DNA of 64,000 nucleotides from an uncultured Acidobacteriota bacterium (GCA_963700145.1 OY969474.1:2720001-2784000); one strand, 5' to 3'; positions 29,724 to 60,100 are shown, numbered from the stretch's first letter. Made by a program: numbers and translations. The notes: generated from the letters alone by a model not told the origin.

Positions 29724-29769
29724 GGCTCGGTTGAGAGACGCCTACTGCCGTTAGGTCATTGAGGGGGAT

Positions 29770-29949: not shown

Positions 29950-29984
29950 GCCGATTGACTGCCCACTCAAAGGAGCCGGAAGAG

Positions 29985-31217
29985 ATGCGCCAACGGATCA
30001 CCAAGCGGGCGGTCGATGCCCTGAGACCCACCGATCGGGACGCCTATCTCTGGGACAGTGAGGTCGCCGGCTTCGGCTGCAAGGTGACCCCTGAAGGACG
30101 GAAAGTTTACGTCCTTCAGTACCGACCGCCAGAGCAAGCGGCGAAGCGGAAAACCGCGCCTAGGCGCCTGACGCTCGGCACGCACGGCCAGTTGACGGCA
30201 GAGCGGGCCCGGGAGCTCGCCACCAAGCTTCTCCTTGAGATCCGGTCGGGCCGAGATCCCGCGGCTGCACGTCGCCGCGGAGCGTCGCCAGAAGTTGCCG
30301 AGCTCGCCGAGCGCTTCTTGACCGAGCATCTCCCCGGCAAGAAGCGCCCGCCACGCGCCTCCACCATCGCCAACTACGAGCTTCTCTTCCGCTGTCACGT
30401 GCTACCGGCACTCGGCAAGAAGCGGGTCGACGCGGTGACCACTGCCGATCTCGAGCGGCTTCACACCGCGATGCGCGCCACCCCGTACGTCGCAAACCGC
30501 ACGCTCTCGCTTCTGCAGCAGGCCTTCGACCAGGCCGAGCGATGGGGCTGGCGCCCGCAGCACTCGAACCCCGCGCTCCACATCGAGCGCTACCGCGAGG
30601 AGCGCCGCGGGGCACGCAAGGAGGTCATGCTCACCTCGGCGCAAATGGCGAGCCTTCTTGCGGCCATCGACGCCGAAGAGGAAACCGAGGGGGCGAACGC
30701 GGCCGCCTGCGCGGCACTCCGCGTCACATTCTGGACCGGGTGGCGGATCGGCGAAGTCCTCGCCCTTCAGTGGTCGAACCTCGACCTAACTTGCGGTAGG
30801 GCGCGGCTCCTTCTGACGAAAACCGCGGCGGAAGAATACCGGCAGCTGCCGGCGGAGGCCATTGCGGTCCTCGAAGGCATCCCGCGCGTCGCCGTCTGCT
30901 CCTACGTCTTCCCCGGCCAGGACCTCACAGGGCATCTCACCACAGTCCGCAAGGCGTGGGCGCGCATCCGCCGGCGCGCGGGCCTCGACAACCTCGACCA
31001 GCTCGGCGGCTTCCGGGTCCACGATCTGCGGCACAACGTCGTGAGCTGGGACGTCTCCCGCGGCGTTGCTCTGGAGATCGCAGGCAAGAACGTTGGCCAC
31101 CGCTCACGCCGCTCGACCGAGGTCTATGCGCACTTTGCACCGGATGCCTTGAAGCGCGCGGCCGATGAGCGCGCCGCGGCAATGCGGGCTGCTATGGAAG
31201 GAGAGGCAACCCCCTGA
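29985..31217 (+). CDS. int: Tyrosine integrase with N-terminal arm-binding domain
   Basis: WD..V.GFG.KV...G.K.Y; catalytic R (GWRIGE), HDLRH, GH, Y (TEVYAH). Confidence 0.95.
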   Translation: MRQRITKRAVDALRPTDRDAYLWDSEVAGFGCKVTPEGRKVYVLQYRPPEQAAKRKTAPRRLTLGTHGQLTAERARELATKLLLEIRSGRDPAAARRRGASPEVAELAERFLTEHLPGKKRPPRASTIANYELLFRCHVLPALGKKRVDAVTTADLERLHTAMRATPYVANRTLSLLQQAFDQAERWGWRPQHSNPALHIERYREERRGARKEVMLTSAQMASLLAAIDAEEETEGANAAACAALRVTFWTGWRIGEVLALQWSNLDLTCGRARLLLTKTAAEEYRQLPAEAIAVLEGIPRVAVCSYVFPGQDLTGHLTTVRKAWARIRRRAGLDNLDQLGGFRVHDLRHNVVSWDVSRGVALEIAGKNVGHRSRRSTEVYAHFAPDALKRAADERAAAMRAAMEGEATP

Positions 31218-33415: not shown

Positions 33416-34783
33416 CTAGTGCTCCGTCAGCGGCCGCTCGCCCGGCCGGTGCCAGTGCCGCAGCACGTACTCGCGGATCGCCTTGAAGGCGCCCTCCTGG
33501 TAGCGGCGCTTCCTCACCGCCTCGGTTGTCAGGTACCAGACCACCTGCAGCTCGGGATGGACCTGCCAGACTTCCAGGAGCTGGTACACCCGCTGCCCGA
33601 GCGCGATGGCTTCGATGAACCGTTCTTGTGCCACGAGGACTTCCATGAGATCAACCGAGATCAGGACGTGCTCGGAGCGCATGTTGTGCTTGAGGAACTC
33701 TCCGGCCGTGCGACGGAACGTACTCACCGCACCACGCACGTCTCCAAGCTCGCGGGCGATCCGGCCTTCCAGCCAGTGCAATCGAAGCTGCGTCCAGGCA
33801 TCCCCGAATTGCCGGTAGAGCGGACGGGTGAAGTTGAGGATAGCCACGGCATCATTGACCCGACCGGCTTCAACGAGAAACCAGGCAAGGTTGTGCAGGC
33901 CGCACAGTTCAAGTCGCGCGTCCGGAATCCCAGCGATGAGTACGAGCGCCTCTCGAATCCAGGTGATTCCTCGCTCCGGGTCGACGTACCCTAGGTAGAG
34001 ACCCTGCTGGAGGTGGAGGCGCGCGGAGGCTCCCTCGTCTTCAATCTCAAGGAGCAGCTCTTGGGCGCGCGTGAGCAGCTCGGCCGCCTCCTCGAAGTAC
34101 CCGAGGTCTGCCCGCAGCGATGCCCGAAAGGAGATCAGGTTGGCCTCTTCGATGGGGTCGCCGGAGCCTTCGTCCAGCGCCTCCTGTGCCGTAGCGAAGG
34201 CTTCGGCCGCACCCTCGAAGTCCGCCGCGAGCCGCTTGGCGTTCCCCAGGATGCCGAGGGCCTGGCACCTGAGGTCAGCGAGAAACGCGGCCGTGTACTC
34301 CTCCGGCTGCAAGTTAACGTGGACGGAGAGCGCAAGGGTAGCAAGCGCGACGGCCTCTTCCGGATCGCTCGACCATGCTTCGCGTGCTTCCTCGATCACC
34401 CGGTCAAAGAAGCCCCAAATGTGGAAGCGGCTATCGGCCTTTGCGATCGCAAGGCGCTCCTCGGGCTTCTGAGCGGCGACTTCGCTCCAGAGTCCGCGCG
34501 CCCTGACGTGCTGCTCGGCGATCTTCTCCTTCAGGGGATGTGGGTCGAAGGCACGGGCATACACGAGCTGGAAGGCTTGCTCGAAGTTCATCGGCGGCTT
34601 CGGGACCACGAACTGCCCGTTCCTGAAGGCGAGGCCGAAGCGTGCCGCAACCTCCTCTGCCACCGCCTGGCACTCGGGACAGCGCGAGAGCAGGTGGTTG
34701 ATGATGGGAGTGCTCTCCGCCGGGGTGAGCTCGAAAAAGAGGAACCGCTCCAGGATCTTCCGGGACAGGTGCTCGTCGGCCAT
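33416..34783 (-). CDS. TPR-like helical-repeat protein with N-terminal zinc-binding anti-sigma-like motif
   Basis: HLLSRCPEC; repeated helical motifs (LGNAKRL, HNLAWFL, WLEGRIA). Confidence 0.75.
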   Translation of the reverse strand: MADEHLSRKILERFLFFELTPAESTPIINHLLSRCPECQAVAEEVAARFGLAFRNGQFVVPKPPMNFEQAFQLVYARAFDPHPLKEKIAEQHVRARGLWSEVAAQKPEERLAIAKADSRFHIWGFFDRVIEEAREAWSSDPEEAVALATLALSVHVNLQPEEYTAAFLADLRCQALGILGNAKRLAADFEGAAEAFATAQEALDEGSGDPIEEANLISFRASLRADLGYFEEAAELLTRAQELLLEIEDEGASARLHLQQGLYLGYVDPERGITWIREALVLIAGIPDARLELCGLHNLAWFLVEAGRVNDAVAILNFTRPLYRQFGDAWTQLRLHWLEGRIARELGDVRGAVSTFRRTAGEFLKHNMRSEHVLISVDLMEVLVAQERFIEAIALGQRVYQLLEVWQVHPELQVVWYLTTEAVRKRRYQEGAFKAIREYVLRHWHRPGERPLTEH

Positions 34784-39232: not shown

Positions 39233-39817
39233 CTAGCTCTCCGCGACTGCCGAGGCGGGCGGAAGCGTTAGATCCAGTTGATCGGAGGCGGGAGGAAGCC
39301 CTGCTCTGTGCAGCCGCGCCGTCTCCATCCGAGCCCGCTCTCGCCAGAGTTCCCGCTCCAGTTCCTCCTTGGTCAGCTTCGCCACCGCGGCCAGCGCGTC
39401 GATTGCGGCCGCGAGGTAGTCGCCGACGACGCACTCAATCGCGCCGAGGATCTCCGCGGCCAGGTCGGGCGCCAGCTTCTCCTCGAGCAGCCCGTCGTGA
39501 AGCTTCGGCGCCGGCAGCCCTTCGTGGACCTCGTTGAGGGCGGCAACGATCGCCGCGAGCTTCTCCGCGAGCGCACCGAGAACCTGCTGTGCTTCGGGAA
39601 CGGAGTAGCGCGTTCTCGGAGCACGGCCGGTCAGGGTCAGCGAGAGGGTGCCGAGAAGAACGTCGACCGTCATCTTCGCCCCGTTTGCAAACCCCGCTCG
39701 TTCGAGCCAGCGGCCCCGCAGACGAATCATGGGAACGCTGTCCGGCTTCTCGGAGTGAGACCATCCGGGCTCCCGATGGTCGCTGTAGAGGCCAACCGTC
39801 AAAGTCTTTCGCTTCAT
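39233..39817 (-). CDS. symE: SymE-family toxin with C-terminal helical extension
   Basis: R.LTVG...P.IRLRGRWLE.AGF..G....V.V. Confidence 0.8.
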   Translation of the reverse strand: MKRKTLTVGLYSDHREPGWSHSEKPDSVPMIRLRGRWLERAGFANGAKMTVDVLLGTLSLTLTGRAPRTRYSVPEAQQVLGALAEKLAAIVAALNEVHEGLPAPKLHDGLLEEKLAPDLAAEILGAIECVVGDYLAAAIDALAAVAKLTKEELERELWRERARMETARLHRAGLPPASDQLDLTLPPASAVAES

Positions 39818-39931
39818 GCGTGTTTCTCCATGGAAGCCCGGGCCACCGGGCGAATGCCGGCGGCACTTGCCGCGGCGGCCCGGTGTTCCTTCTCTCCTGT
39901 CTGCGGGCGCTGCATCGTCGCGTCCTATCCC

Positions 39932-40115
39932 GGTCTCCGCACCTCCGCTCTAGTAATCCTCGGCAGAGTCATTCCGCCGGGAAAAGTGAAAGCTCTCGCA
40001 CCCGCAAGGTGCGAAGGCGATTGCTCAACTTGGGGGAAGGCGTTAAGGTGCTATCTGAAGATCAGCGTAGGCGAGGAGATCAAGCAGTCATAGCCGTACA
40101 AATCTGCCGAGAAGG
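39932..40115. repeat. Island repeat L, copy A (symE upstream region)
   Basis: Homologous to 44766-44955; shares taatcctcggcagagtcattccgccggg and aaggtgctatctgRagatcagcgtag. Confidence 0.85.
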
Positions 40116-40291
40116 CAGGTTGGGCGGGCGGGCAGACTGCAACGGCCAATGGCCGAGTGGTCCTGAAGAAGCTGTGCGGGTCTTCTTCCGCATAGCTCGA
40201 TAGACACTTACCTATGCGCCATCTTCATTGACACCGACCAAACCAGGTTTCAGGATGCGCGTAGCCGTCTCTTGCCAGATGGGCTGAACTT

Positions 40292-42313
40292 GTGGAGGAC
40301 CTTATGCGCTCACACAGGACGATCTTCCTATTCACGTCTCTCGCGCTGACCTTGTCATCTTTAGCACATGCCGTCGAACCCGCCTCTGGCCATGCGGAAA
40401 TACGGATCAATCACAAAGATGCCATCGTTTATAAGCACCCCACCTATGTCTTCCGATCCTGGACCACTGATTACAAGGAGCTGCCGGCTCGCGTCCTGGC
40501 GACTCCACATCCGTTCACTGTTCGACCGGGAGAAAAGGTCACTATCTATATAGAAGATCGTAACCCGTTCCTCTATTCATACGTATGGACTAGCGCTGAG
40601 GGAATCGCCACTCAGAATGCGACGGCAGCGGCAGTCTTCACGAAGGGGCTGCTCACGCTTATACAGAACCTTGAGCCGGCTTCCGGTTCCAGCGACCTAA
40701 CCCCATACGATCCTTACGGTATTCGGACAGCACGGGGTGCGCAGTTCGTGCTGGCGTCGCTGCACCAAGACTTCGAATTAGACGATGACTTTCCGATCGA
40801 AAGCCCGGGCTCGAGCAAGGAGATTCTCGAGAGAGCTGCTGGAAGGATCAATGCGCTTCAAATAGGTGGAGACCGGACATTCGGCGAGCAGGTCATGGAT
40901 TTTCGCGTTGACGACATCATGGAGCGCGCTATCGAGGCCGTCCGGAGCAAGAATGTCCCCACTCCTGAGAATCCGAGGATCAGAGAAATCCTAAAAGAAG
41001 CGGGTATTCCGAATACCCGAAGCTTTCTCCAAGACTTCAAGGCGCTCGCAGCTAAATTGTATCTCTTCGGTGAACAGACAGAGAAGCTCATCAGTGAAGT
41101 CGAGAGTGGCAACGGTCGCGCCGCTAAGGAAGTGGTGAACGGATGGCAGCTGGAGCGCAATATACCTGACCTCGGCAAGCGCTACGACCTCATGCGAAGC
41201 GCAATGGATGCTCTCGTATCAGAAGTGAATGCAGAGAAGAACACAGAAGAGCTCTCCGAGGAGATCGCTACCAAGATCCGGAGAGCCGACTTCATCAAGC
41301 GTAAGTTGGCAAGACTTCCCGGGATTCTAAATGAGGCCGAGGCACAGCAGCTGCCGGCGCTATGTAGTGAGTGGTCCAAGTTGACCGGCGGGAGTCGCGC
41401 CGCATGCCTGGCTGACCCAACGAAGCTTGTAGGTAAGACGACAATTCAATCGGAGGAGCTTGAACACGAGGACACGGGAGATGTGGAACTGATCGATCTT
41501 CCGGAGCGGCTTGTCCTTACTGGAAGGCGATTCGAGAAGGGAGAAATCAGGGCTCTTGCCGATGAACTTGACCGAGCCCGGGCGGCCAATCGGGTAAGCA
41601 ATAGGATAAGTGCCGATCCCTTTTATATCAGCGCCCAATTTCTGCTGACGCAGGAGGATGAGACGCGCACCACGTTGTCAGAAATGGAGCAATTCGCCAC
41701 GACGATGGCTCTGGTCGACACAGCGATGCCCCTTGCCGAGATCACCTACGACGGCACGTTGATCAAAGGCGGCAAATTGACGATCACACGGGTTAAGGGC
41801 CTCCCGATCGGGTTGCAGAAGCTCTTCCGAAGAGGTGAACAGGTGGAGGCTGTCTACGATCTCGCGTTCAAGCCGTACAGCGCTGTTCAACTCGAAGCGG
41901 GCGTCGCAACGGTATATAGCTTCGTCAAGCAGCACGATTTTGAGCTCACGCCAGAGGGGAGCAACTTCAGGATCATCGATACTGAGAACGAGTACTCCGG
42001 AGTGGAGCTAGGAGCTATGTTGACCATAGTGCCCGCTCGATGGGCCGACTCCGATTTTTATGGACTGTTCCAAGTAGGAGTGAAGCCAAGCGAGAACCTC
42101 GGGTTCTTCGCTGGGGGCGGTATCAAGTTCTCGAATTGGTTCTCATTCGGCATAGGAGCCGCCTTCGAGCAGGTGGAAAGGCTCAAAGCAGGCGTCGACC
42201 CGGACGGAGACGGCTTGATCCCGAGTAGGGACGCGCTCAAGACAGAGAAGCATTTCGAGCCCGGATTCTATATACATCTAACGGCTAGTAAGGAAATCGG
42301 TAAGAAGAACTGA
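40292..42313 (+). CDS. Large secreted hypothetical protein with possible C-terminal beta-barrel-like region
   Basis: Signal peptide; helical middle; alternating aromatic/Gly strands at the C-terminus. Confidence 0.7.
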   Translation: MEDLMRSHRTIFLFTSLALTLSSLAHAVEPASGHAEIRINHKDAIVYKHPTYVFRSWTTDYKELPARVLATPHPFTVRPGEKVTIYIEDRNPFLYSYVWTSAEGIATQNATAAAVFTKGLLTLIQNLEPASGSSDLTPYDPYGIRTARGAQFVLASLHQDFELDDDFPIESPGSSKEILERAAGRINALQIGGDRTFGEQVMDFRVDDIMERAIEAVRSKNVPTPENPRIREILKEAGIPNTRSFLQDFKALAAKLYLFGEQTEKLISEVESGNGRAAKEVVNGWQLERNIPDLGKRYDLMRSAMDALVSEVNAEKNTEELSEEIATKIRRADFIKRKLARLPGILNEAEAQQLPALCSEWSKLTGGSRAACLADPTKLVGKTTIQSEELEHEDTGDVELIDLPERLVLTGRRFEKGEIRALADELDRARAANRVSNRISADPFYISAQFLLTQEDETRTTLSEMEQFATTMALVDTAMPLAEITYDGTLIKGGKLTITRVKGLPIGLQKLFRRGEQVEAVYDLAFKPYSAVQLEAGVATVYSFVKQHDFELTPEGSNFRIIDTENEYSGVELGAMLTIVPARWADSDFYGLFQVGVKPSENLGFFAGGGIKFSNWFSFGIGAAFEQVERLKAGVDPDGDGLIPSRDALKTEKHFEPGFYIHLTASKEIGKKN

Positions 42314-42345
42314 GCGTGACCGGCAACGCTGTATTGAGGACGAAT

Positions 42346-42545
42346 CACACCCCGCTATCAAGCGGGGTGTGTGAGAATTCTGCAACTGGTCATCATAGAG
42401 ATCCTGGATGTAGAGTGAACTCAGGATTCTTCTCGAACCAGTCGAGGATCTCTCGCATAACGTGTCTCAACTCAGATTCTCTCGTGACCTGCGTCTCCGG
42501 CAGGTTTGTACCGCTTCGACCTCCGGCCCGTTGAAGGTCACTACA
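42346..42545 (-). repeat. Island repeat R, copy A: hairpin + relic of serine recombinase 3' end + att-like site
   Basis: Homologous to 47265-47485. Minus-strand translation RSGTNLP...LRHVMREILDWFEKNP*. Confidence 0.8.
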
Positions 42546-42556
42546 TAGGGGAGGCC

Positions 42557-44401
42557 ATGTACGCACGAACGATCGTCGTCTTCTTCACAGTCCTGCTGAC
42601 CGCGTGTGCCACCACGACGCGGGGCCGGTCCGTCGTCCTGCGCGGGCAGGTGCTCGATCCGGCGAACGCGCCGGTCGCCGGCGCGATGGTCACGGCCGGA
42701 TCGCGTGCGGCGCGCACGGATGCTCTCGGCGAGTTCCGCCTGGTCGTGCCGCGCGCGGAGCGCATCGCCGCGACCATCATTGCGCCGCGGTTCATCGAGA
42801 CCACGCGGGTGTTCACGTCCGAGAACCTCGCCCGCGGCAAAAACGTCATCGTGATCTGGCCGCGTGCGGCCGCGGTTCCGCTCGACGCCAGCCTCGGCGG
42901 AACGCTGACGTTCCCTGGCGGCACCATCGCCATCCCTCCGGCCGCGCTGGTCGATGCGAACGGTCAGCCGGCGACCGGCAACGTGCGCGTCTCGTTATCG
43001 GCCATCGACGTCTCCGATCCGCGCCAGCTTCGCAGCGCACCCGGTGACTTCACCGCCCGCATGCGCGACGGCTCCACGCAGCGGCTGGAGACATTCGGGA
43101 TATTCGAGGTCTTCGCCGAGGACGCGGCCGGGCGGCGGCTGGACCTCGCCCGGGGCCGCGAGGCGCAGGTCCGGCTGCGCATCCCGCCGCCGCTGCAGCG
43201 CAACGCGCCGGACGTGGTCGGATCCTTCCGTTTCGATCCGGCCGACGGGCGGTGGGTGGAGGAAGGTCGGATGATCCTCGCGCCCGCTGGAGACGCGTTC
43301 GACTTCCCCATCCCGACCTTCGCCGTGAAGTGGAACGCCGATCAGGTCATGGCAACCACGTGCATCAAACTGCAGGTCCTCGACTCCGGCTGCGGCCAGG
43401 CAGCGGCGACGGTGAACGCGCACGTCGAGGCGGGCGGAGTCAATTACACCGGCTACTCCCATGACTACACCGATGGAAGCGGAGAGGCCTGTCTCTCGGT
43501 CAAGAAGAGCGCCGTCGCCGGCGTGACCGTCAACGGCGGCAACGCGCTCAACATCGCCACGCCCGCCACCATCGCCAGCGCGCCGGGCGACTGCAACAAC
43601 CCCGCGCTCTGCCCGCTGGTGGCGACGACGCACCTCGGCGGCGCCGGCTTCGTCGAGCCGCTGAATGCCGACGATCCGTCCCGCTGGACTAAAGCCGACT
43701 GGCAGAACGCCGATCAGCTCTTCGGCACCGCCTGGAAGCCGACCACCAACCACGTCTCTTTCGCGAACGGTGAGCTGACCCTCACCCTCACGGACTACGG
43801 CAACACTCCCGCGGACGTCTGCGCCACGGATCCCGTCGCGAACTGCCACGGCGAGAACTACACGTCCGGCGAGTACCGTACCAACTGCTTCTACGGCTAC
43901 GGCACCTACAAGGCCAAGATCCGCGCCGCGCGCGGGGACGGACTGGTGACGACTTTCTTCACCTACACCGACATCTTCGACGGCACGGCCGGGCCGAACA
44001 ACACCAACTGGCACGACGAGATCGACATCGAGATCCTCGGCAAAACCCCGGCCTCGAGCGGTTGCGCGGGGACGATCGTGCAGTTTAACTACTTCATCAA
44101 AGGCACTCAGGACCCGGAGCCGAAGTGCCTCCTCTTCGACGCGTCGCTGATGGAGCACGAGTACGAGTTCAGGTGGACGCAGACAGAGATCAAATGGTAC
44201 GTCGACGGTGTCCACCAGCACACCGAGTTTCGCCCGTCGCCTACGGCCGATTGGCCGAGCCAGCCCGGGCGGGTCATGGCCAGCGTCTGGGCGGGCGACA
44301 ATACTAACGGGGGTGCTGTCGCTTGGCTGGGCACGTTCAACTATAACGCCGCCGGGATCATCCGCGACGCCGTCTTCTCCGAGATCAGCTACACGCCGTG
44401 A
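42557..44401 (+). CDS. Lipoprotein with carboxypeptidase-regulatory-like domain and C-terminal GH16 domain
   Basis: Lipobox LTAC; GQVLD.....VAGA.V; GH16 motif DEIDIE; RBS GGGGAGG. Confidence 0.8.
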   Translation: MYARTIVVFFTVLLTACATTTRGRSVVLRGQVLDPANAPVAGAMVTAGSRAARTDALGEFRLVVPRAERIAATIIAPRFIETTRVFTSENLARGKNVIVIWPRAAAVPLDASLGGTLTFPGGTIAIPPAALVDANGQPATGNVRVSLSAIDVSDPRQLRSAPGDFTARMRDGSTQRLETFGIFEVFAEDAAGRRLDLARGREAQVRLRIPPPLQRNAPDVVGSFRFDPADGRWVEEGRMILAPAGDAFDFPIPTFAVKWNADQVMATTCIKLQVLDSGCGQAAATVNAHVEAGGVNYTGYSHDYTDGSGEACLSVKKSAVAGVTVNGGNALNIATPATIASAPGDCNNPALCPLVATTHLGGAGFVEPLNADDPSRWTKADWQNADQLFGTAWKPTTNHVSFANGELTLTLTDYGNTPADVCATDPVANCHGENYTSGEYRTNCFYGYGTYKAKIRAARGDGLVTTFFTYTDIFDGTAGPNNTNWHDEIDIEILGKTPASSGCAGTIVQFNYFIKGTQDPEPKCLLFDASLMEHEYEFRWTQTEIKWYVDGVHQHTEFRPSPTADWPSQPGRVMASVWAGDNTNGGAVAWLGTFNYNAAGIIRDAVFSEISYTP

Positions 44402-44596
44402 CGCCCGCCCTGCGGCTACGCTTCATAGACGAACTCCCAGGGAAGCAAGTGGCGGCAATTCTCGGAGTGCATGCACCCAAGCGCCCGCAAGATCGTGCAG
44501 CGCGCGCGAGCCCGACTCGGAGCAGCTCGTCGAGAGATTGAGGATGGTGCAAAGCAAAGGCCGACTCCGGCAGCTTTGTACCGCTTCGACACCTGA
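44401..44596 (+). pseudogene. Frameshifted remnant of an ECF sigma factor region 4
   Basis: ALRLRFIDELPGKQVAAILGV followed, in the +1 frame, by SARKIVQRARARL. Confidence 0.55.
44565..44590. repeat. att-like site CTCCGGCAG(C/G)TTTGTACCGCTTCGAC
   Basis: 25/26 identical to 42495-42520; related to 47435-47457. Confidence 0.75.
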
Positions 44597-44765
44597 TGGG
44601 GCCACGTGCAGGCACCGATGAGAGACGGTGGAGTAAACCGCTGGTGTGCTGGCTAGCAGGTTAGTGGTAGACTAAAGGTAAGCAGCGCCATTGTGCGATC
44701 ACGTCGACGATGGTGTTCCAGTCAAATCCGCGTGGGCGGGCACTACGCCTTTGCGTTCCGCCCCA

Positions 44766-44955
44766 GGTCTTCCCACCTCCGCTCTGGTAATCCTCGGCAG
44801 AGTCATTCCGCCGGGGAACTCACGAAGCTCCCGCACCCGCGAGGATGCGAGGGTGACTGCTCAAGTCGGGGGGAGTGAGACAGTGAAGGTGCTATCTGGA
44901 GATCAGCGTAGCGCGATCATCTCGCCTGCATAGGCGCAGGAACCTGCCGGAGAGG
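44766..44955. repeat. Island repeat L, copy B (no symE downstream)
   Basis: Homologous to 39932-40115. Confidence 0.85.
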
Positions 44956-45054
44956 GACGACCTTCTAGGCCCCATGCAGCTGTGCACATTCTTTGATTTG
45001 ACCGCACGCGCTTAGAGAGTTACCGTAGAGCAGCAACTCCGAAAGGGAGGGACT

Positions 45055-45382
45055 ATGACTGCTCCGCTATTGCGCACGGCACGTATCTGTTCGCTTGTTC
45101 TTCCACTGATGTATCCGTTGGCAGGCGCGCCGCTCCAGGCAGACGCCTATGCCTTGCAGGTCGATAGTGGCGGCACTCTCCTCACCAACCTCGAGTACTA
45201 CGCTCGCGAAGAAGCGGACTCGAATGATGTTAGCGTTCACGCGAAGCGCAACCTTAACGGGCAGTCCTACGTGGGGGTCGGGCAAGATCGGCAATAGCAT
45301 GTCCCTGACCGCGCTCTCAAGTGGTGTGCAGCTGAACGGCCTGCCGATTTGGACCGAAGATCACCTGCCACTCGCCCTATAG
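45055..45382 (+). pseudogene. Frameshifted or truncated secreted protein (possible LamG-like N-terminus)
   Basis: RBS and signal peptide; LEYY..EE...ND, then GKIGN in a shifted frame. Confidence 0.4.
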
Positions 45383-45392
45383 GAGAAGAGCA

Positions 45393-45572
45393 ATGGCTGA
45401 TCAACGAGACGAGAAGAACGATGCGGATGTTAGAAACCTTGACGCAAGTAGTTCTGACGAAGAGACGCGCGAATGCCGAATGCCGTGTCCGGAAGAAGGT
45501 TGCTACCAAAGGTGTGGTAAGAACTGGGGTCATCCGCGTCCGCACACTTGCCCTACGCACGGGGATTTCTAG
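45393..45572 (+). CDS. 59-aa acidic-leader, Cys/His-rich small protein
   Basis: AGGAG RBS; MADQRDEKNDADVRNLDASSSDEETRECRMPCPEEGCYQRCGKNWGHPRPHTCPTHGDF. Confidence 0.55.
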   Translation: MADQRDEKNDADVRNLDASSSDEETRECRMPCPEEGCYQRCGKNWGHPRPHTCPTHGDF

Positions 45573-46083
45573 CGATGACGAAACCTTGAATAAGAGTAAC
45601 GTTAGAGCTGCGGCGCGATAGGTTTCGTGTAGACCTCGTAGAAAAAGGCGCGCAGCCTTGCTCGACGCGTACATCTGCTCCGGCCGGGTGTGGGGGGTTC
45701 TCGCGGCGACCGACTTTTTTTCCTCTGCCCTCGTCGCCGCGGCCTCTTCAACAGTCGCCGTTTTAGGAGGCCAGTATGCCTGAGAATCAACAGAGTGAGG
45801 CGCATCGTGTGACTACGGCTGCAATTCATACACAAGGTTCGGAGGCTGAAGTGACATTTTTGAAGCTTGCGGCGCTAAGCATCCCCTCTGTACGAAGGCC
45901 TTGGAGAATGTGAAATGCGAAAAGGACATAAAATTGGGGCCAAGATCACGTATGTAAGTGCAATGCGACCTGGTGATATCCGATGCGCCCGGTGCATTCA
46001 GCGCAAGGTCTATTGAACTTGGCGATGTCGAAGCGGTTGACCCGGCTTGAGGTGAGTTGCTGCGGCAGCGGTACCATCGGCTG

Positions 46084-47133
46084 ATGAAATTCCACCAAGA
46101 CACGATCCGCGACCCAGAAATCGTGGACCTCGAGGGCGCCACCGTGCTGCTACCGGAGGGCTGGAAGCGGGAGGGCGGGTTCGTGTGGATGCCGCAGTTT
46201 TCGATCCAAGCCAACCTGCTCATCAGGGTCTCCGACCCGAACACGGGCGCGGCGATGCAGACGCTGCTCGCCCAACACTTCGTCTGGTCCTGGCAGCCAT
46301 CGGTCACCTCCATGCCGCCCGGCTCGAACTGGCTCGGCTCGGTGATGCTCCCCCCGCCGCGCGAGCCGGCCGAGTGCGTGCACATGGTGTTCATGCCCGG
46401 CCCCCTGCAACACTTGCGTGGCGCGCGGCTCGTGCGGGTCGAGGACCTGCAGCCATATGCCGCGGAGCTGGCGCTCGGCGCCCCCCAGATGAACCTGCAC
46501 GCGACGCGATTGCGTTACGCCTTCGACTGGAACGGGCAGGGATGGGAAGAGGACGTCTATCTCATCGTCGTGCTCTCCCCGCCGGAGGAGGGGTGGTTGG
46601 CGATCTGGCGGTGCGCGGCCTGGTCGGCGCGTGCGCCGATGGATGAGTTGGACGGGATGACTCCCCTGCTCGCGGCGATCGCGCTGTCGGTGCGCACCAC
46701 CTTCGATTGGGCGGCGCTGCTCGCTTACACGCAGCTCGAGTTCCAACTGAATATCAAGAGGCAACAGACCCGCCCGATCATCCGACAACAGCGGGGAGCG
46801 ATCTGGGCGCAGGAGCAGACGCCGTACACGATGTGGGTCCAGCGCCAGGAAGAGATCCGCAAAAAGCACCGCCCGGCGTGGGAGGCGCGGCAACCGGGCC
46901 TCGACCGTGAGCGCATCGTCCTGAGCCGACTCATCGGCGGACTCGAGACGTACATCAACCCGTTCGATTCGGGCCGTGTGCAATTGCCATCGAGCGATTC
47001 CGGTTACTGGATCAGCAAGGAAGGTCAGGTCGTCACCGCAAGCGATGCCGCCTTCGACCCAAGCGCGGGCAGCACGCCAGGGTGGAAGAAAATGATGTTA
47101 GATGTCGGAGCTGCAACGCACTCGCAGCATTAG
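46084..47133 (+). CDS. Hypothetical protein
   Basis: Long ORF with coding-like composition (LLPEGWKREGG; YINPF....VQLP). Confidence 0.65.
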   Translation: MKFHQDTIRDPEIVDLEGATVLLPEGWKREGGFVWMPQFSIQANLLIRVSDPNTGAAMQTLLAQHFVWSWQPSVTSMPPGSNWLGSVMLPPPREPAECVHMVFMPGPLQHLRGARLVRVEDLQPYAAELALGAPQMNLHATRLRYAFDWNGQGWEEDVYLIVVLSPPEEGWLAIWRCAAWSARAPMDELDGMTPLLAAIALSVRTTFDWAALLAYTQLEFQLNIKRQQTRPIIRQQRGAIWAQEQTPYTMWVQRQEEIRKKHRPAWEARQPGLDRERIVLSRLIGGLETYINPFDSGRVQLPSSDSGYWISKEGQVVTASDAAFDPSAGSTPGWKKMMLDVGAATHSQH

Positions 47134-47264
47134 TATGACTAGCCCTGCAGCACGCTTCTCAAGGTGCTTTATTCCTTGGAGTCTGGTGGCAGCTCGCATC
47201 TCCTGTTAGGTTCAGACAGAAGCGAAGGTTACATTCGGGGCTGTTGAGTGGGACCGAGTACAAG

Positions 47265-47290
47265 CACACCCCGCCGTCTGGCGGGGTGTG
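47265..47290. terminator. Hairpin CACACCCCGCC-GTCT-GGCGGGGTGTG downstream of the recombinase
   Basis: The same stem occurs at 42346-42371. Confidence 0.5.
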
Positions 47291-47297
47291 AATCGAT

Positions 47298-48935
47298 CTA
47301 CTGCTGGCGATCTCGGATACTCCGAAGTACACTGGTAGGTACTGTGGGATTCTTCCGAAGCCAGTCATGGATCTCTTGGAGAACGTGTCTCAATCCAGAA
47401 ACAGGATGAGTATTTAGCATCGTACTTGTCGCCGCCGGCAGGTTTATGCCGGTTCGAGAACTGTCCCGACTACGTCCACCTAGTTGCGTTTGGTCGTGCT
47501 TAGACAGTAGGCCAAACGGGAATAGTAGCTCAACCACAACGTTCTTTCGATCCGCGCGCCGGTTCGAGGTGAGCATTTCCAGCAGCTCACGTTTTTCATC
47601 GTCCGTTCCCAGTTCGTGGCTCAGTGAGGCCGTGGAGGCAAGTTCGAGGATTTCGCGCAGGCGAGTTGCCTCTTCCTCAGCATCCACCTCCCTGGCAAGC
47701 TTCTCTTCCAGCTCTCGCTGATCGAGGAGGAGTCGCTTCTTGCGTCCCTCAAAGGCCTCCTTGTCGAGAGTTCCTTCAAGGTAAGCGTCCACTAAGCGGT
47801 CTTGGCGAGTCTGGAGAGCAGCGAGCTGGAGCTTCCACGTCTCCTTCGTCCGCTCCGTACTTTCCTCATGGTGACCGAGGAATGCATCTGCTTCCACCTC
47901 CAAGGCAGCGCGTTCGGTATCGGACAGCCGCAACATGGAATACGCGCTCGTAACCGCGGCCTCGAGCAGCTCCTCCCTCACGCCGGTCATCGGGCAGATC
48001 TTCGTGTGGCAGCGGTAGTAGACATGGCCCTTCTGCAGCTCGCCGATCAGCGCGTAGCCGCACTCGCCGCACCGGAACATTCGGCGGTAGCGGAGGAGAT
48101 TGCGCCCGGTAGTTTTCTGAGACTTCCCGGAGAGAAGTGCCTGCACACGCTTGAAGAGCTGCGTGCTGATGAGCGCTTGATGCACTCCCTTGTAGACCGC
48201 ACCCCCCTTGTGGACGATGAGCCCCATGTAAAAGGGATTGTTGAGCATCGCAGAGAGCCCGTTGCGCGTCACCGGGCCGCCTTGGCGGTTGCGCAATCCC
48301 ATTCGGGCGAGCTCCTCGCACAAGGTGTCGAGGCTGTGGGCGCCGGTGGCGTACAGCTCGAAGGCTCTCCGTACTGTCGAACCTGTTACGGGGCAAATGG
48401 TCTTGACCTTCCCGCGAGGCCCGTTGTTGACGTAGCCGAGGGGTGCTCCCCAGGGGAGCAGTCCCTGGCTCAGCCTCCCGGCAATGCCTTTCTTCACTTC
48501 CTCGCGGAGGTTGCGGATGTAGTCGGTGGCGAAGACTGCCTGCACGTCAGCCAAGAGCCGCTTGCCGCGGGTGCTCAGGTCTAGGTTGTCGCTGGCGAAC
48601 CGGACGCCGAAGCCTTCATCGGCAAGGTCGTTGATGTCCGCCCAGTCGTGATAGTTGCGGCTGGAGCGATCTACCTTGTGCACGATGAAACCTTCGGCCT
48701 CTCCTCTTCGCAGGCGCTTGGCCATGGAAGAGAAGACGGGCCGGCCGCGGACTGCCGCGGTCTCGATCTCGCGAAACCACTCGACGATGGTGAGCCCCTC
48801 ACGTTCTGCGTAGCGAGAAACGACGCTGCGCTGCTCGGCGAAGGAGGCACCCTCCCGTGAGTCTTTCTGGTCCGGGTCCTTTTCGTCATCCTGTTTTGGA
48901 TCCGAGACACGGATGTATGCGAAGAATCGCTTCAT
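47298..48935 (-). CDS. Large serine recombinase (resolvase + recombinase + zinc-ribbon domains)
   Basis: YIRVS catalytic motif; KVDRSSRN; P.GY; NPFYMG; C..CG and YYRC. Confidence 0.95.
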   Translation of the reverse strand: MKRFFAYIRVSDPKQDDEKDPDQKDSREGASFAEQRSVVSRYAEREGLTIVEWFREIETAAVRGRPVFSSMAKRLRRGEAEGFIVHKVDRSSRNYHDWADINDLADEGFGVRFASDNLDLSTRGKRLLADVQAVFATDYIRNLREEVKKGIAGRLSQGLLPWGAPLGYVNNGPRGKVKTICPVTGSTVRRAFELYATGAHSLDTLCEELARMGLRNRQGGPVTRNGLSAMLNNPFYMGLIVHKGGAVYKGVHQALISTQLFKRVQALLSGKSQKTTGRNLLRYRRMFRCGECGYALIGELQKGHVYYRCHTKICPMTGVREELLEAAVTSAYSMLRLSDTERAALEVEADAFLGHHEESTERTKETWKLQLAALQTRQDRLVDAYLEGTLDKEAFEGRKKRLLLDQRELEEKLAREVDAEEEATRLREILELASTASLSHELGTDDEKRELLEMLTSNRRADRKNVVVELLFPFGLLSKHDQTQLGGRSRDSSRTGINLPAATSTMLNTHPVSGLRHVLQEIHDWLRKNPTVPTSVLRSIRDRQQ

Positions 48936-49898: not shown

Positions 49899-51249
49899 CA
49901 ACGCCCCCAAGAGAACCCGGATACGGCCGGCTGTCTCCGCCATCTTGTCCTCCGGCGAGCTCCTCGAGACGGTGTATGACCCCGCCACGCCGGCGACAGG
50001 GTTTGTGGTCTTTGACGGCGCAGCGTGGCGAGTGGAGAAGCGAGTTGAGTTGCCCTCGGGAGTGAGCCTTGTCCCGTACTCGCCGGAGAACAACCTGCTG
50101 ACCCATCGGGTCGTGCTTCTCCCTTCTGCGCCGGAGGACTACGGCTCCGAGGAAGAGCTTCTCCTTGAAGTGCGCAAGTTCATCCACCGCTACGTCGACC
50201 TGGGCGAGCTGTTTGAGGAAGTCGCCGCCGCATACGTTCTCTTCACCTGGATCTACGACGCCTTCAACGAGGTGCCGTACCTGCGCGTGCGCGGCGACTA
50301 CGGCTCCGGCAAGTCCCGCTTTCTCCTCACCGTCGGCTCTCTCTGCTACAAGCCGATCTTCGCTTCGGGCGCCTCGACGGTCTCTCCCATCTTTCGCATC
50401 CTTGATGCGGTCCAAGGCACTCTCGTCATCGACGAAGGCGACTTCCGCGCCTCAGACGAGAAGGCCGACATCGTCAAGATTCTCAATAACGGCAACGCCC
50501 GCGGGTTCCCGGTGCTGCGAAGCGAACAGACACCGTCCAAGGAGTTCAACCCCCGGGCCTTTCACGTCTTCGGCCCCAAACTCATAGCGACTCGCAGCCT
50601 CTTCGACGATCGGGCGCTTGAGAGCCGCTGCCTCTCCGAGGACATGGGGATGCGGCCGCTGCGGAAGGACATCCCGATCAACCTGCCGGAGAGCTTTGAG
50701 GAAGAGGCCCGAACACTCCGCAACAAGCTCCTTCTGTACCGCCTCCAAACCCGCGGAAAGAGCCGAGACCTCACCGCGGCCCTGCCCGCAGGTCTTGAGC
50801 CGCGCCTGAGCCAGATCCTCGTACCACTGCTCTCGACCGTCTCAAGTGAAGAGACGCGAGAACGGCTCCTCTCGCTTGCCCGCCGATCAGGCCAGGCGCT
50901 TTCAGCCGAGCGCGCCATGGCGATCGAGGCCGAGGTGCTCGCGGTCCTGCACGAGCTCCGCGCGGAGGGTCTGCCGCTGTCGGTTTCCGAGATCACCAAG
51001 CGCTTTGCCGATCGCCACGCTGCCGAGTATGAGTACGTCGTGACGCCCCGCTGGATCGGCTCGGTCCTAAGGCGAAAGCTCATGCTCACCCCGCAGAAGC
51101 GCGGCGGCACCTTCGTCATCCCGGCTTCCGAGCACCCCAAACTCGCACGGCTCTTCGAGAAGTACAGCGTGCCTTCGGAGCAGGACATTGGGGACGTTGG
51201 GGATGTCCCACAGGATGACGGCGGCGAGAGCCTAAGCACGGAAACATAA
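49891..51249 (+). CDS. P-loop ATPase, putative replication helicase/initiator
   Basis: PYL...GDYGSGKS (Walker A), LVIDEGD (Walker B), ALESRC. Confidence 0.75.
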   Translation: MPDNAPKRTRIRPAVSAILSSGELLETVYDPATPATGFVVFDGAAWRVEKRVELPSGVSLVPYSPENNLLTHRVVLLPSAPEDYGSEEELLLEVRKFIHRYVDLGELFEEVAAAYVLFTWIYDAFNEVPYLRVRGDYGSGKSRFLLTVGSLCYKPIFASGASTVSPIFRILDAVQGTLVIDEGDFRASDEKADIVKILNNGNARGFPVLRSEQTPSKEFNPRAFHVFGPKLIATRSLFDDRALESRCLSEDMGMRPLRKDIPINLPESFEEEARTLRNKLLLYRLQTRGKSRDLTAALPAGLEPRLSQILVPLLSTVSSEETRERLLSLARRSGQALSAERAMAIEAEVLAVLHELRAEGLPLSVSEITKRFADRHAAEYEYVVTPRWIGSVLRRKLMLTPQKRGGTFVIPASEHPKLARLFEKYSVPSEQDIGDVGDVPQDDGGESLSTET

Positions 51250-51300
51250 GGCTTCCCGGCCCGCCTGCCCCGTAGAACGTCCCCAACGTCCCCAACGTCC
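51183..51300. repeat. Two inverted arrays of 9-bp iterons (GGACGTTGG / AACGTCCCC); putative origin
   Basis: 51183-51206 and 51276-51300 face each other across the ATPase stop codon. Confidence 0.65.
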
Positions 51301-51380
51301 TATCTCCTCCTCCCAAAACCTGCCGACTCCGGCAGCTTTTTACGCCTTGCATTTGACTTCATGTCAAGTAAGTTGTCACG

Positions 51381-52218: not shown

Positions 52219-52359
52219 AGGTAGGTAGCGTACGGTGGATTTGACTAGGTGTCCTTACGGAGAGGGCACACACGCTTTCCCGCGAAGAACGGGGGAGCTT
52301 TGGCGTGCGTCAGAAAAGGACGCCTTGGAAGGAGAGGGGCAGTCCATCACGATGGGCGG

Positions 52360-53559
52360 ATGCACTCCGAGGACCGCATCACGTACTTCGCCCGCACCAA
52401 CCACCGCAACACGCGGAGGCTCTTTGGCATTCGCAGGCGCGATCGGCTCATGCACCTCTACACCATCGGCCGAACCGGCACGGGAAAGTCCACGCTTCTG
52501 AAGACCCTCATCCTCCAGGATCTTGAGGCCGGCGAGGGCCTGGCGCTCTTTGATCCGCACGGGGACCTGGTGGAGGAGGTGGTGGAGCTCGTGCCCACCG
52601 CTCGGCGGAAGGACCTTCTCTACCTCAACGTCCCGGACAGCCGCTGCCGCTTCTCGTTCAATCCCTTCGCCGGCGTTCCTGCCGGCAAGCGAGCGCTCGC
52701 GGCCGCCGGCATGGTCGAGGTCTTTAAGAAGCTCTGGCCGGACGACTGGGGACCGCGGCTCGAACACCTGCTCCGAAACACCGTCTTCACGCTCCTCGAG
52801 ACGCCGGGAGCCAGCCTTGCCGATATCCCGCGTCTCCTTGCCGACCGGGAGTACCGCCGAGAGGTGGTCGCCGGCGTCACCAACCAAGAGGTCCGCGCCT
52901 TCTGGCGCGACGAGTACGAGCGCTACAGTCCTGGCATGCGGGGAGTGGTGGTGGCGCCCCTGCAGAACAAGGTCGGAGCGTTCCTGACCGACCCGCGGCT
53001 GCGGGAAATCCTCGGGGCCGAGGAGTCGAGCTTCGATCTACGCGAGATCATGGATGAGGGCAAGATACTGCTGGTCAATCTCGCCCGCGGGCGGATCGGC
53101 GAGGGGCCGGCGGCGCTCCTGGGATCGCTCCTCGTCTCCTGCCTGAGCCTTGCGGCCTTCGGCAGAGAAGAGCAGCCGCAGGAAGAGCGCCGCGACTTCT
53201 ACCTTTACCTCGACGAGTTCCACACCTTCGCCACTCTGACCCTGGCGACCATGCTCTCCGAGCTGCGGAAGTACCGGGTGGGACTTGTGCTAGCCCACCA
53301 GTACCTCTCCCAGCTTGAGACGGAGGTCCGGGATGCGGTCTTCGGGAACGTGGGGACGTTCGTCAGCTTCCGGGTGGGAGCGCTCGACGCGCCGACGATC
53401 GCCCGGGAGCTCGCGCCGACGTTTGAGTCTGAGGACCTGATCTCCCTGCCTAACTACCGCATCTACCTGCGGCTAATGATCCGAGGAGAGCCGAGCAAGC
53501 CATTCAGCGCCACGACCACCCACGAGAAGCTGTTGACGCCGGCGGCGGCGCCCGGTTAG
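52360..53559 (+). CDS. VirD4/TraD (HerA-like) coupling ATPase
   Basis: GRTGTGKST; DPHGD; LYLDEF; ELRKY; AHQ. Confidence 0.85.
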   Translation: MHSEDRITYFARTNHRNTRRLFGIRRRDRLMHLYTIGRTGTGKSTLLKTLILQDLEAGEGLALFDPHGDLVEEVVELVPTARRKDLLYLNVPDSRCRFSFNPFAGVPAGKRALAAAGMVEVFKKLWPDDWGPRLEHLLRNTVFTLLETPGASLADIPRLLADREYRREVVAGVTNQEVRAFWRDEYERYSPGMRGVVVAPLQNKVGAFLTDPRLREILGAEESSFDLREIMDEGKILLVNLARGRIGEGPAALLGSLLVSCLSLAAFGREEQPQEERRDFYLYLDEFHTFATLTLATMLSELRKYRVGLVLAHQYLSQLETEVRDAVFGNVGTFVSFRVGALDAPTIARELAPTFESEDLISLPNYRIYLRLMIRGEPSKPFSATTTHEKLLTPAAAPG

Positions 53560-57199: not shown

Positions 57200-60100
57200 A
57201 TGCTCATTGACTCGCGGACGGTCGAGCTCACCCGACGCTTCTACGAATGGGAGCTGCGGGGACGCGGCTGGGCGACCTACCCGTACCCGGTGGCGCTCGA
57301 GCCGCCGTTCCAGCCGTTCTTCTCCCACCACATCTCGACCGTCGTCGTCGACGACGGCAGGCGACACTCGCGGCTCTCCTCCCTCATCGAGAGACTTCAG
57401 GGCGTTCAGGAGGCGCCAAGAGATTTGCCTGCGGCGCTCCCGGAACCGCAGACCGCGGCCGACCTCCGGTTCGACGAGACCGCTCTCGCCGAGTTCGTGG
57501 TCGCCTTGCCTGAAGGCACCCGCGTCGCACGAGGTGCGCTTCTCGGCTTTCTGCGAGCGCTCGCAAGCGTAGGGCGGCGGATCGCGTTCGAGCTGCTCGG
57601 AGGGGACAAACGCGTCGAGGTCCGCCTCGCCATGGCGCGGGACGACGCCCCGCACGTGCTCGGCCAGCTCAGGGCCGCCTTTCCTGCGGCCGTCGTGGTC
57701 GGCGCCGGCGAGTCGCTGCGGGAGAAGTGGAACAAGGACGAAGGCGCCTTTGTCGCGATCGAATTTGGCCTCGCCTGCGAGTTCATGGTGCCGCTCTCGG
57801 GTCGCACCTCCGACGAACCTCTCCTGCCCCTCATTGCGGCCCTCGCCGATGTAGAGGCCGGTGAGCTTGGCCTCGTTCAGGTGCTCTTCGAAGAGACGCG
57901 CGAGCCCTGGGCGGCGAGCATCCTGCGCTCCGTGGTGACGCACACGGGTCAACCATTCTTCGCCGACGCGCCGGAAGTCACAGCCCTTGCCAAGGAGAAG
58001 ATCGCATCGCCGCTCTTCGCCGTCGCCCTTAGAATCGCGGGCGCAGCTCCACGCGGCGACCGGGCCTGGGACATTGTCCGTCGACTCGCCGGCGGCCTGG
58101 CGCAGTTCGGCAGTCCGCGGACGAACGAGTTCATGCCCTTGCCTCCCTCCAACCCGGAAGTCCTTGCCGAAAATCTCCTCAACCGGACGACCCACCGACC
58201 TGGAATGCTCCTCTCGGCCGAGGAGCTCCTGTCGCTGATTCAGCTCCCCGGCGCCGGCGTCCAAGTGCCGGAGCTCTGGCGAGGAGGGCAGAGATCGAAG
58301 CGGGCGCCGGCGGAAGTCAGCGGTCCCGGCTGCCTCTTGGGCCGCAATGAGCACGCCGGGGAGAGCGTGGAAGTGCGGCTTCCGGTCGACGCGAAGACCA
58401 AGCATGTCCACGTGGTGGGCGGCTCCGGCACCGGCAAGTCGACGCTTCTCGTCCGCATGATCCTTGAGGACATCGAGGCCGGGCATGGGATCGGGGTCCT
58501 TGACCCTCATGGCGACCTCGTCGACGAGGTGGCCGCGCGGGTACCCGACTCGCGCCTCGACGACGTCGTCCTCTTCGATCCCAGCAACGAGGAGACGGCG
58601 GTCGGCTGGAACATCCTTCGCGCGCAGTCGGAGAGCGAGAAGGACCTTCTCTCCTCCGACCTCGTGGGCGTCTTCCGCCGCCTCTCGACGTCCTGGGGAG
58701 ACCAGATGACGGCGGTCCTCGGCAACGCCATCTTGGTCTTCCTTGAGAGTGAGCGCGGGGGAACGCTCCCCGACCTCCGCCGCTTCTTGATCGACGAGAG
58801 CTTCCGGAGGGAGATGCTCGGCACGGTCACCGATCCCTACATCCGGTCCTTCTGGCAGACGGAGTTCCCGCTTCTCGTGGGCAAGCGGCCGCAGGCGCCC
58901 ATCCTCACGCGGCTCGACAGCTTCCTGCGCTCGAAGCTCGTGCGCCGCGTGGTGACGGCAGCGGAGCCCACGCTCGACTTCCGGAAGCTCACGGACAGCG
59001 GGATGATCTTCCTCGGCAAGCTCGCCGCCGGCGCGATCGGCGAGGAGAACGCGGCACTTCTGGGATCGCTCCTGGTCTCGAAGTTCCACCAGGTGACGCT
59101 CGGGCGCGAGGCGCAGGCGATCGAGGCGCGGCGGCCGTTCTTCCTCTACATCGACGAGTTCCACCACGTCGCGACCCCCTCGATGGCGTCGCTCTTCTCC
59201 GGCGCGAGGAAGTACCGGCTGGGTCTGACGGTCGCCCATCAGGACCTCTACCAGCTCCACCACTCGATCCCTGAAGTGGAGCGCGCGCTCCTCGGAAACG
59301 CCTACACGCGCATCTGCTTCCGGGTCGGTGAGGACGATGCCCGAGCGCTCGAACGCGGCTTCAGCTTCTTCACGGCCGAAGACCTCATGAGGCTGGGCCT
59401 CGGCGAGGCGATCTGCCGCGTGGGCGGTCGCGACCGGGACTTCAACCTCTCGGTCGAGCGCTTGCCGGCTCTCGACCCTGCCGAGGCGCTCGGGCGGCGA
59501 CAGGCCCTGCGCGACCACTCGGCCCGGCGCTTCGCGCGACGACCCGTCGAAGCCCCGACGATGGGAGACGCGCCAGCGCCTGAGGCGGTGACGGCTCCCC
59601 GGAGTCTCGACGCGCCCGAGGTCGCTCCCGCCCCAACGCCGATTCGGGGAGAGGCGGTTGCGGAGCAAGTGAGCCGAGTGGAGCGCGAGCCGCCCATAGA
59701 TAAGCTCACACTCGATTACCTGACCCTCGTCGCGTCCTCCCCGTTCCTCACCGTGCGGGAGCGCAACCGCGCGCTTGGCCTAAGCGCCTGGCGAGGGCAG
59801 CGCTTGAAGAGCGCGATCCTGCGGGACGCTCTCGCGCAAGAGGTGGTGGTGAACCCCGGCGGCCGCGGCGAACGCTTCAAGCTCCTCGACCTCACCGCGG
59901 AGGGCCGCACCCTCCTTGCGCGCTACGGAGTGTCTCTCTCCGGGGGTCACGGCCGCGGCGGGCTTGCGCATCAGTGGTGGGCGCAGAAGATCGCCGCATG
60001 GCTTGCCGAGCGCGGGATGGATGCCAGGATCGAGGACCCCTCCTCCGGCGCGCGGGTGGACCTCACCTTCCCGCTTGAGGGCGGGAGCGTTGCCGTCGAG

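Follow-up and report, generated by a model that had tools for sequence, protein, structure and literature searches.

In a stretch of 64,000 nucleotides (nt) from an uncultured soil bacterium of the Acidobacteriota (GCA_963700145.1 OY969474.1:2720001-2784000; hereafter the window, with positions counted from its first letter), an intact gene for a large serine recombinase (LSR) is followed by an array of unrelated cargo genes separated by repeated pieces of the recombinase gene's own 3' end. We propose with moderate confidence that this 3' end holds a docking site, at which site-specific recombination stacks units that each consist of a replacement end of the recombinase gene (the tail), a hairpin, and cargo. 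The pattern of gene capture recurs in related genomes and looks not yet described.

The window contains three direct copies of a conserved block of ~55 bp, the first of them inside the recombinase gene, and a tail and a hairpin follow two of the three (Table 1). A repeat search and a BLASTN self-comparison agree on the copies: 42492-42520 and 44562-44590 are identical at 27 of 29 positions, and 47430-47468 matches the reference site copy at 74% identity. The tail copy at 42424-42476 is 83% identical to 47347-47399, and the minus-strand translation of 42393-42520 aligns as an orphan recombinase C-terminus. The hairpins at 42343-42371 and 47262-47290 match each other, and a further conserved region, termed L, recurs at 39929-40074 and 44763-44916 with 81% identity over 155 columns. 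All these copies are directly oriented. An original prediction, made from the sequence of the window, had listed the direct-repeat sites (25/26 identical over the extent that it gave them), the tail copy, the hairpins, and the L repeats, as well as a common spacing rightward of the sites at 42.5 kb and 47.4 kb, and each of these is present. Its location of the sites also holds, but the length of 23-26 nt that it gave them is too short for the ~55-bp block, and the breakpoint falls at the gene-proximal edge rather than in the core: displaced copies begin at the recombinase-proximal edge of the block (47481, 44616, and 42542).

Table 1. Array components and flanking genes of the window
Feature	Position	Strand	Description
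SymE-like gene	39233..39817	-	194 aa; Pfam SymE_toxin, N-terminal; NCBIfam SymE match below cut-off
L_B	39929..40109		conserved; closes the array; inverted site core at its array-side end, 40088-40109
Cargo B	40292..42313	+	673-aa open reading frame (ORF); no family match
Hairpin B	42343..42371		fold energy -23 kcal/mol, z = -5.75
Tail B	42393..42490	-	orphan 3' coding fragment of recombinase gene; 78% DNA identity to tail of intact recombinase gene of G420
Site 3	42491..42542	-	complete displaced B-type block; left edge at residue-equivalent 485
GH16 glycoside hydrolase gene	42557..44401	+	middle-unit cargo; 614 aa from ATG; Pfam Glyco_hydro_16 and CarboxypepD_reg; G+C fraction 0.68
Site 2	44560..44616	-	solitary, partly decayed block; core 44568-44589, 1 mismatch to commonest form; inner part diverged
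L_A	44736..44949		second L copy; 81% identity to L_B, 87% and 81% to L regions of G414 and G420
Cargo A	45055..47133	+	ORFs of 80, 90, and 358 aa; no Pfam or PADLOC match; convergent with recombinase gene
Hairpin A	47262..47290		11-bp G+C-rich stem, no T tract; -27.7 kcal/mol, z = -5.6
Tail A	47298..47427	-	last ~43 codons of intact gene; conserved helix motif in alignment
Site 1	47428..47481	-	~55-bp block within recombinase gene, codons ~486-503; nhmmer profile match 47422-47480
Site 1, inner part	47458-47481	-	inside recombinase gene
Site 1, core	47436-47457	-	inside recombinase gene
LSR gene, intact	47298..48935	-	545 aa (P0001); Pfam Resolvase, Recombinase, Zn_ribbon_recom
Conserved backbone upstream of recombinase	48932..53559		genes of 89, 219, 452, 126 (helix-turn-helix, HTH), and 182 aa, and a 436-aa coupling-protein-like ATPase

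The 22-nt core of the site, with up to 3 mismatches allowed, has three matches in the whole 5.46-Mb genome, all of them in this array and on one strand, and the reversed control has none; BLASTN found no further copy of the sites, tails, or L repeats in that genome. Within the family, the core is present in 10 of 92 genomes. With both orientations counted, there are three matches in the genome of the window (G000), four and two in the same-genus genomes G414 and G420 (one of the latter on a different contig, with 3 mismatches), two in tandem in G458, and one in each of six others, against two control matches across all 92. The motif is thus almost confined to these arrays, and the counts rule out chance repeats. 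The array-side end of L_B matches the reverse complement of the site 2 and site 3 cores at 18 of 22 positions, the sole match of at least 16/22 in the window. An inverted core-like motif also lies 192-197 nt past the site in three homologous loci (L009, 16/22; L013, 17/22; L014, 14/22), and L_A ends, at 44928-44949, in a weaker version (13-14/22) that by itself is not above chance. An Rfam scan of 36-52 kb at E <= 1 returned only a chance miRNA match, so that the L repeat belongs to no known RNA family. The hairpin past each tail keeps a near-identical 11-bp G+C-rich stem without a T tract across related loci, a degree of conservation that exceeds what a plain terminator would need.

Similar arrays are found in G414 and G420 and at homologous loci (L-numbers), several of them on metagenome contigs. 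Contig C52 of G414 carries a related island, with 84-89% DNA identity in the shared flanks and homology that begins at window position 33416. Between its L region and its recombinase body, there are four displaced tail-and-hairpin copies with differing cargo, spaced 2.0, 2.7, 3.0, and 5.6 kb, and two of these tails show 79-80% DNA identity to Tail A. G420 has a single unit. Its intact recombinase, ~47% identical to P0001, ends in the B-type site and tail, the very type that is displaced at 42.4-42.5 kb in the window; the B-type block also occurs in G414, in the final displaced unit at the array's far end. A compact case is the 2.2-kb contig L014, which reads as recombinase body, site, short tail, hairpin, small antisense ORF, and a second site, tail, and hairpin. 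Its unit measures 538 bp, and over 326 nt its second site and tail share 85% identity with those of L013, which has them once. The cargo DNA of the window, G414, and G420 shows no mutual similarity, and the position of Cargo B is filled by 5.4 kb (G414) or 10 kb (G420) of unrelated genes. Among 130 loci, no tail-plus-cargo unit occurs in two arrays or positions. The recurrence of these arrays in the independent assemblies of G414, G420, and L014 excludes an assembly artefact, as does a 658-nt contig from a public sequencing run, possibly of the source sample, that spans 44215-44872 across site 2 with zero differences. In G414, the whole site block is also duplicated in tandem (54 nt) inside the intact recombinase gene (L127, ~34309-34384), which explains a doubled peptide motif in the protein P0027. 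A similar 57-nt tandem block pair lies inside another intact recombinase gene (G458:C18:363595-363673), and P0019 displays the same doubled motif at the protein level. Such tandem blocks may be empty insertion scars.

The junction is fixed far beyond the close relatives. For each homologous gene, the last 260 nt and the 60 nt past the stop codon were searched against the sequence further downstream, and a match in direct orientation was found in 17 of the 96 loci with at least 400 nt of downstream sequence. Five were set aside because they matched over 16-17 nt (L012, L024) or in the stop-codon and hairpin region only (L033, L035, L084), which leaves displaced tails at 12 loci: L014, L041, L106, L049, L002, L001, L038, L037, L087, L055, L057, and L006. 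L002 and L001 have two displaced copies each, and L055 and L057, whose figures are identical, may be one element. The positive loci include metagenome-assembled genomes labelled Alphaproteobacteria, Blastocatellia, and Rhizomicrobium, with recombinases 40-47% identical to P0001. Of 16 displaced copies, 11 have the left edge of homology at the equivalent of P0001 residues 484-486, and 13 have it within 482-489, two of these 13 lying at residues 482 and 489. Edges at 493 and 498 belong to site 2 of the window and unit 3 of G414, in which the proximal part of the block has diverged or been partly deleted; the copy in L006 starts at 517. The same junction holds in elements with a different block sequence. 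The block itself is under nucleotide-level constraint: where residues are identical, codon identity amounts to 0.83-0.90 over residues 479-508 in seven close genes, as against 0.61 gene-wide. A test set beforehand, namely that cargo turnover in homologous loci should break at the sites, thus came out as predicted in G414, G420, and L014 and at the 11 coinciding edges, and the predicted stacking behind an intragenic attachment site is favored by these comparisons of related arrays, of ~12 of 96 loci, and of a fixed edge.

The product of 47298-48935 is a large serine recombinase of the serine integrase type, with the catalytic domain joined to Recombinase and zinc-ribbon domains. The Pfam Resolvase domain spans residues 5-158 (E = 1.8e-20), the catalytic Ser11 and Arg9 are invariant in an alignment of 25 homologues, and residues 209-471 align with the C-terminal domain of the A118 integrase in a comparison against the PDB. 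This last match stops at residue 471, ~15 residues short of the junction codon, which places the exchanged tail outside the canonical fold as an appendage. At 339-434, the long helices expected of the coiled coil embedded in the zinc-ribbon domain are predicted by a low-confidence AlphaFold2 model (mean predicted local distance difference test score 59, below 50 over residues 429-523), which is too poor over the tail to be informative on it. The genome encodes a single distant paralogue (28% identity). A search of 401 genomes of the class returned no close homologue of P0001, the best being 48% identical; close relatives came only from metagenome contigs and the two same-genus genomes.

The conserved flanks indicate what the locus looked like before it was filled. 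In L012 and L016 a SymE-like homologue directly follows the recombinase gene, and in L009, L013, and L014 the L region lies directly behind the hairpin. This points to an ancestral layout of recombinase body, site, tail, hairpin, L region, and SymE-like gene, against which the remainder of the 40.1-47.3 kb stretch of the window is inserted material. The SymE-like protein, 88% and 78% identical to its counterparts in G414 and G420, is the conserved neighbor at which the variable region ends, and a promoter for its gene, or an antisense RNA, may lie within L. On the other side, the backbone at 48.9-53.6 kb is syntenic in L009, L012, L013, L015, G414, and G420, and synteny ends at the site.

In the mechanism that we favor, crossover would occur at a fixed point near codon 486, just beyond the part that matches the solved DNA-binding domains of serine integrases. 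Each inserted unit would combine the distal portion of the block with a replacement tail of ~45-60 codons, the G+C-rich hairpin, and cargo. Each event would re-complete the recombinase gene and regenerate the docking site beside the gene body, with the earlier site and tail displaced downstream as an orphan. Repetition would yield a direct-repeat array that ends at L, which itself starts with the inverted site core, and then at the SymE-like gene. No recombinase was detected among the cassette proteins scanned, one of them being an IS256-type transposase fragment, in L001, and cassettes without a recombinase of their own make the adjacent recombinase the likely catalyst. If the partners shared the tail-side half-site, recombination would yield the two site types that it started from, allowing repeated insertion, and excision by the same reaction. 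The comparisons establish the anatomy, the common junction codon, the nucleotide-level constraint on the block, and the return of the arrangement with other cargo in independent genomes; catalysis by this enzyme, travel of the units as circles, the exact crossover dinucleotide, and a role for the inverted motif are inferred.

Several observations weigh against this mechanism. Canonical serine integrases pair sites of different kinds and leave the recombined products untouched. Self-regeneration would work only if both partners had one half-site in common. Displaced tails are absent at 31 loci with more than 3 kb of downstream sequence. Ungapped dyad symmetry at the junctions is mostly no better than in shuffles (in the two strongest cases, 1/200 and 10/200 shuffles reached the observed score), so that the junctions are not obviously textbook serine-integrase sites, and an inverted core noticed by eye upstream of two internal junctions, in L014 and in unit 2 of G414, is not significant in a blind search. 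Site 2 has no recognizable tail or hairpin, and the far end of the first unit of the window (unit A, 47481 to 44617) carries an L region and ~120 nt of extra sequence in place of a clean junction. The cargo of the terminal unit differs among the three genomes while both of its flanks are conserved, which implies turnover between hairpin and L by a route that the model leaves unexplained. Finally, no circular or deleted forms and no joints appeared in the low-depth contigs of the public runs (Logan), which are therefore uninformative on excision; one run (X1) covers the stretch at low depth, and two others (X2, X3) gave only short, unlike pieces.

The simpler alternative named in the original prediction is that whole sister elements integrated in tandem and that deletions then removed their backbones and recombinase bodies, leaving look-alikes of cassettes. 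For unit A this has merit: a complete second L and ~120 nt precede site 2, as if cut from a full element, and for this reason the unit probably entered within a whole sister element at the same site and was then trimmed to site 2. The recombinase body of G420, too, is only ~47% identical to that of the window, despite a shared tail B and 82% identity in the upstream backbone, which indicates that whole recombinase modules have been exchanged. As a general account, however, we consider tandem integration unlikely. No remnant of a backbone or recombinase body precedes any of the 16 displaced copies, the units of G414 (2-3 kb) and L014 (0.5 kb) are far below element size, and the left edges coincide within a few codons across elements of different phyla, where random deletions would not repeatedly halt at one codon. 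Were the deletions site-directed, this explanation would merge with the one that we favor.

Homologous recombination at the ~55-bp block could also displace an old 3' end. No other DNA of the gene is as conserved as the block, which so offers homology, and the architecture, with a main gene followed by an orphan stretch, a variable end, and extra genes, matches that of Rhs/CdiA arrays. Nevertheless, this route appears quite improbable, as ~55 bp at 75-95% identity is a poor RecA-type substrate, the retained homology starts at one codon instead of at variable depths, even in distant homologues with a different block, and insertion would further depend on a second, far-side junction, at which there is no homology. 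It is more improbable again, and in our estimation very much so, that another enzyme uses the site or that the block is a conserved regulatory or RNA element duplicated incidentally. The island does encode a tyrosine integrase (29928-31217) and an IS256-type transposase, and a weaker site-like 22-mer lies in the intergenic backbone at 51330-51351. However, the tyrosine integrase and the insertion sequence are not shared with the G414 island, although the array there is the largest, this recombinase family is accompanied by the site in different phyla, and Rfam finds no RNA family here. 

Returning to self-regenerating docking, we tentatively extend it to the family as a whole: a widespread LSR family of Acidobacteriota, Alphaproteobacteria, and others might constitute its own gene-capture platform, with a docking site in its own 3' coding end that the fresh gene end of each captured cassette regenerates for further use, exit of circles by the same reaction without a directionality factor, and exchange of anti-phage defense and accessory genes within conjugative islands.

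Units range from 0.5 to 10 kb, and most of the cargo is convergent with the recombinase gene, some units being multi-gene. A promoter scan found nothing above shuffled expectation. Cargo A has no counterpart in the other arrays. The GH16 gene, whose best family matches reach 43-45% identity over the C-terminal part only, is not found in the three same-genus genomes searched; it is thus accessory cargo, and its interpretation as a conserved host gene was rejected. Its unit lacks a recognizable tail or hairpin, and a purine-rich stretch 6 nt after the end of the block, ahead of the start codon at 42557, agrees with the ribosome-binding site predicted just past the site. Elsewhere, defense functions are among the cargo. 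The cargo of G420 is a DISARM set (DrmA, DrmB, a DrmE C-terminal domain, and a methyltransferase), and that of G414 includes a HamB-like caspase-helicase, a DUF11 protein, a Schlafen/AlbA_2 protein, and a secreted protein with collagen and carbohydrate-binding modules. KAP NTPases are carried in L038 (where it scans as PifA-like) and L055, and a protein kinase in L041. No cargo is shared between arrays except for a 40%-identical caspase-helicase downstream of the L015 and G414 recombinases. These caspase-domain DEAD-box helicases (L015 13608-16631 and L128 4400-7414, 40% identity) lie in opposite orientations relative to the recombinase gene.

The array sits inside a low-G+C island of ~31 kb at a tRNA-Ala gene, as marked by a 58-nt repeat of the tRNA end (29762-29819) that matches the gene at 60697-60772. 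The empty island site is preserved in contig C59 of G414 (L115, L124, L130), in which matches to 24000-28859 and 60696-64000 of the window lie ~1.7 kb apart. At the ends of the G414 island itself, there is no tRNA gene within the 60 kb covered, and BLASTN homology there is only to window 56.5-59.4 kb. Apart from the integrase and transposase, the island encodes two coupling-protein-like ATPases (52249-53559 and 57200-60631, the second of 1143 aa with a C-terminal HTH_17 domain) and the SymE-like gene; backbone proteins match the Pfam families TrwB_AAD_bind and HTH_31. Between the 452-aa and HTH genes of the backbone, at 51182-51351, are a 33-nt inverted repeat (51182-51214/51269-51301) and a direct 22-mer (51330-51351) that agrees with the site core in 16-17 of its 22 positions, with weak profile matches at the same place in L009 and L013; this segment might serve as a secondary site or as an origin of transfer. 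In a relative (L007 and L011, 9707-13014), the recombinase gene and a small upstream gene are inverted relative to the 452-aa backbone gene, which there follows the recombinase gene and shares its strand, whereas in the window it is upstream and divergent. A tRNA-Sec gene lies outside the island, at 19718-19817.

The array shares features with several known systems. In the Rhs/CdiA systems, a displaced conserved stretch with a variable gene end and accessory genes accumulates downstream of the full-length gene; homologous recombination is held responsible for these arrays, in which the orphans keep variable lengths of the conserved sequence. Here, in contrast, the boundary is fixed (11 of 16 edges within three codons), and in place of a toxin domain the variable end consists of a short, conserved helix. 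In Tn4451 (TnpX) and Tn5397 (TndX), an LSR encoded at the edge of the element excises circles and inserts them at sites resembling the element joint. Those enzymes, however, move their own element, their sites lie outside the gene, and no stacking of cassettes is described for them. The attachment sites of serine integrases measure 40-50 bp and have a weak dyad centered on a dinucleotide, as compared with the ~55-bp block, fixed junction, and mostly non-significant dyad seen here. The SSV1-type suicidal integrases of archaeal viruses and plasmids have the attachment site within the integrase gene and, in the account of PMC8371274, are tyrosine recombinases exclusive to archaea. The site of the present family likewise lies within the recombinase gene, at codons ~486-503. 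But where the SSV-type gene is split and inactivated by integration, the gene is intact in the window, G414, G420, and L014; it would stay whole because the crossover falls beyond the folded part of the protein and a new end comes with each partner.

There is a likeness in logic to the staphylococcal cassette chromosome (SCC), in which, as described in part in PMC11470126, Ccr LSRs insert cassettes into the 3' end of rlmH with preservation of the gene, tandem composites form with direct repeats, cassettes without a recombinase are moved in trans, and defense genes are carried. The target here is nonetheless the recombinase's own gene instead of the housekeeping rlmH, with a duplicated ~55 bp and a tail of 45-60 codons, and P0001 lies outside CcrA, CcrB, and CcrC (38-56 bits against NCBIfam cut-offs of 700-900, with 56 bits set against a cut-off of 900). 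Neither the integron, nor SCC, nor the SSV-type integrases have their full set of defining features represented in these arrays, and a full-text literature search, judged mostly from abstracts, found no serine recombinase whose own gene contains its attachment site and none followed by cassette arrays.

In overall logic, these arrays also resemble integrons, as the original prediction had it. Both have a docking site beside the recombinase gene and promoter-poor, unrelated cassettes stacked directly, with the newest presumably nearest the recombinase; in both, array length and content vary between close relatives, and defense genes figure among the cargo. The term integron-like does not extend to the details, as the cargo is mostly convergent and units are sometimes multi-gene. 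The enzyme is a serine recombinase and not an IntI-type tyrosine recombinase, the docking site lies inside its coding sequence, and the units, of 0.5-10 kb, each carry a spare gene end and a hairpin. Moreover, the cargo of the window lies on the opposite strand and reads toward the recombinase gene, with no common promoter. Integron cassettes carry attC sites, imperfect inverted repeats, at their 3' ends; here, an inverted site core closes the array (18/22 in the window, 16-17/22 in L009 and L013) and is not significant at internal junctions, and the dyad and inverted-motif tests brought no folded site like attC to light. If the proposed mechanism holds, the reaction would be that of a serine integrase regenerating its own substrate, which bears on directionality control and could serve iterative DNA assembly, and it would carry defense systems (DISARM, caspase-helicase, PifA-like) in poorly studied soil phyla. 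The arrays would then represent a serine-recombinase counterpart of the integron, a second, independently evolved route to the stacking and swapping of gene cassettes.

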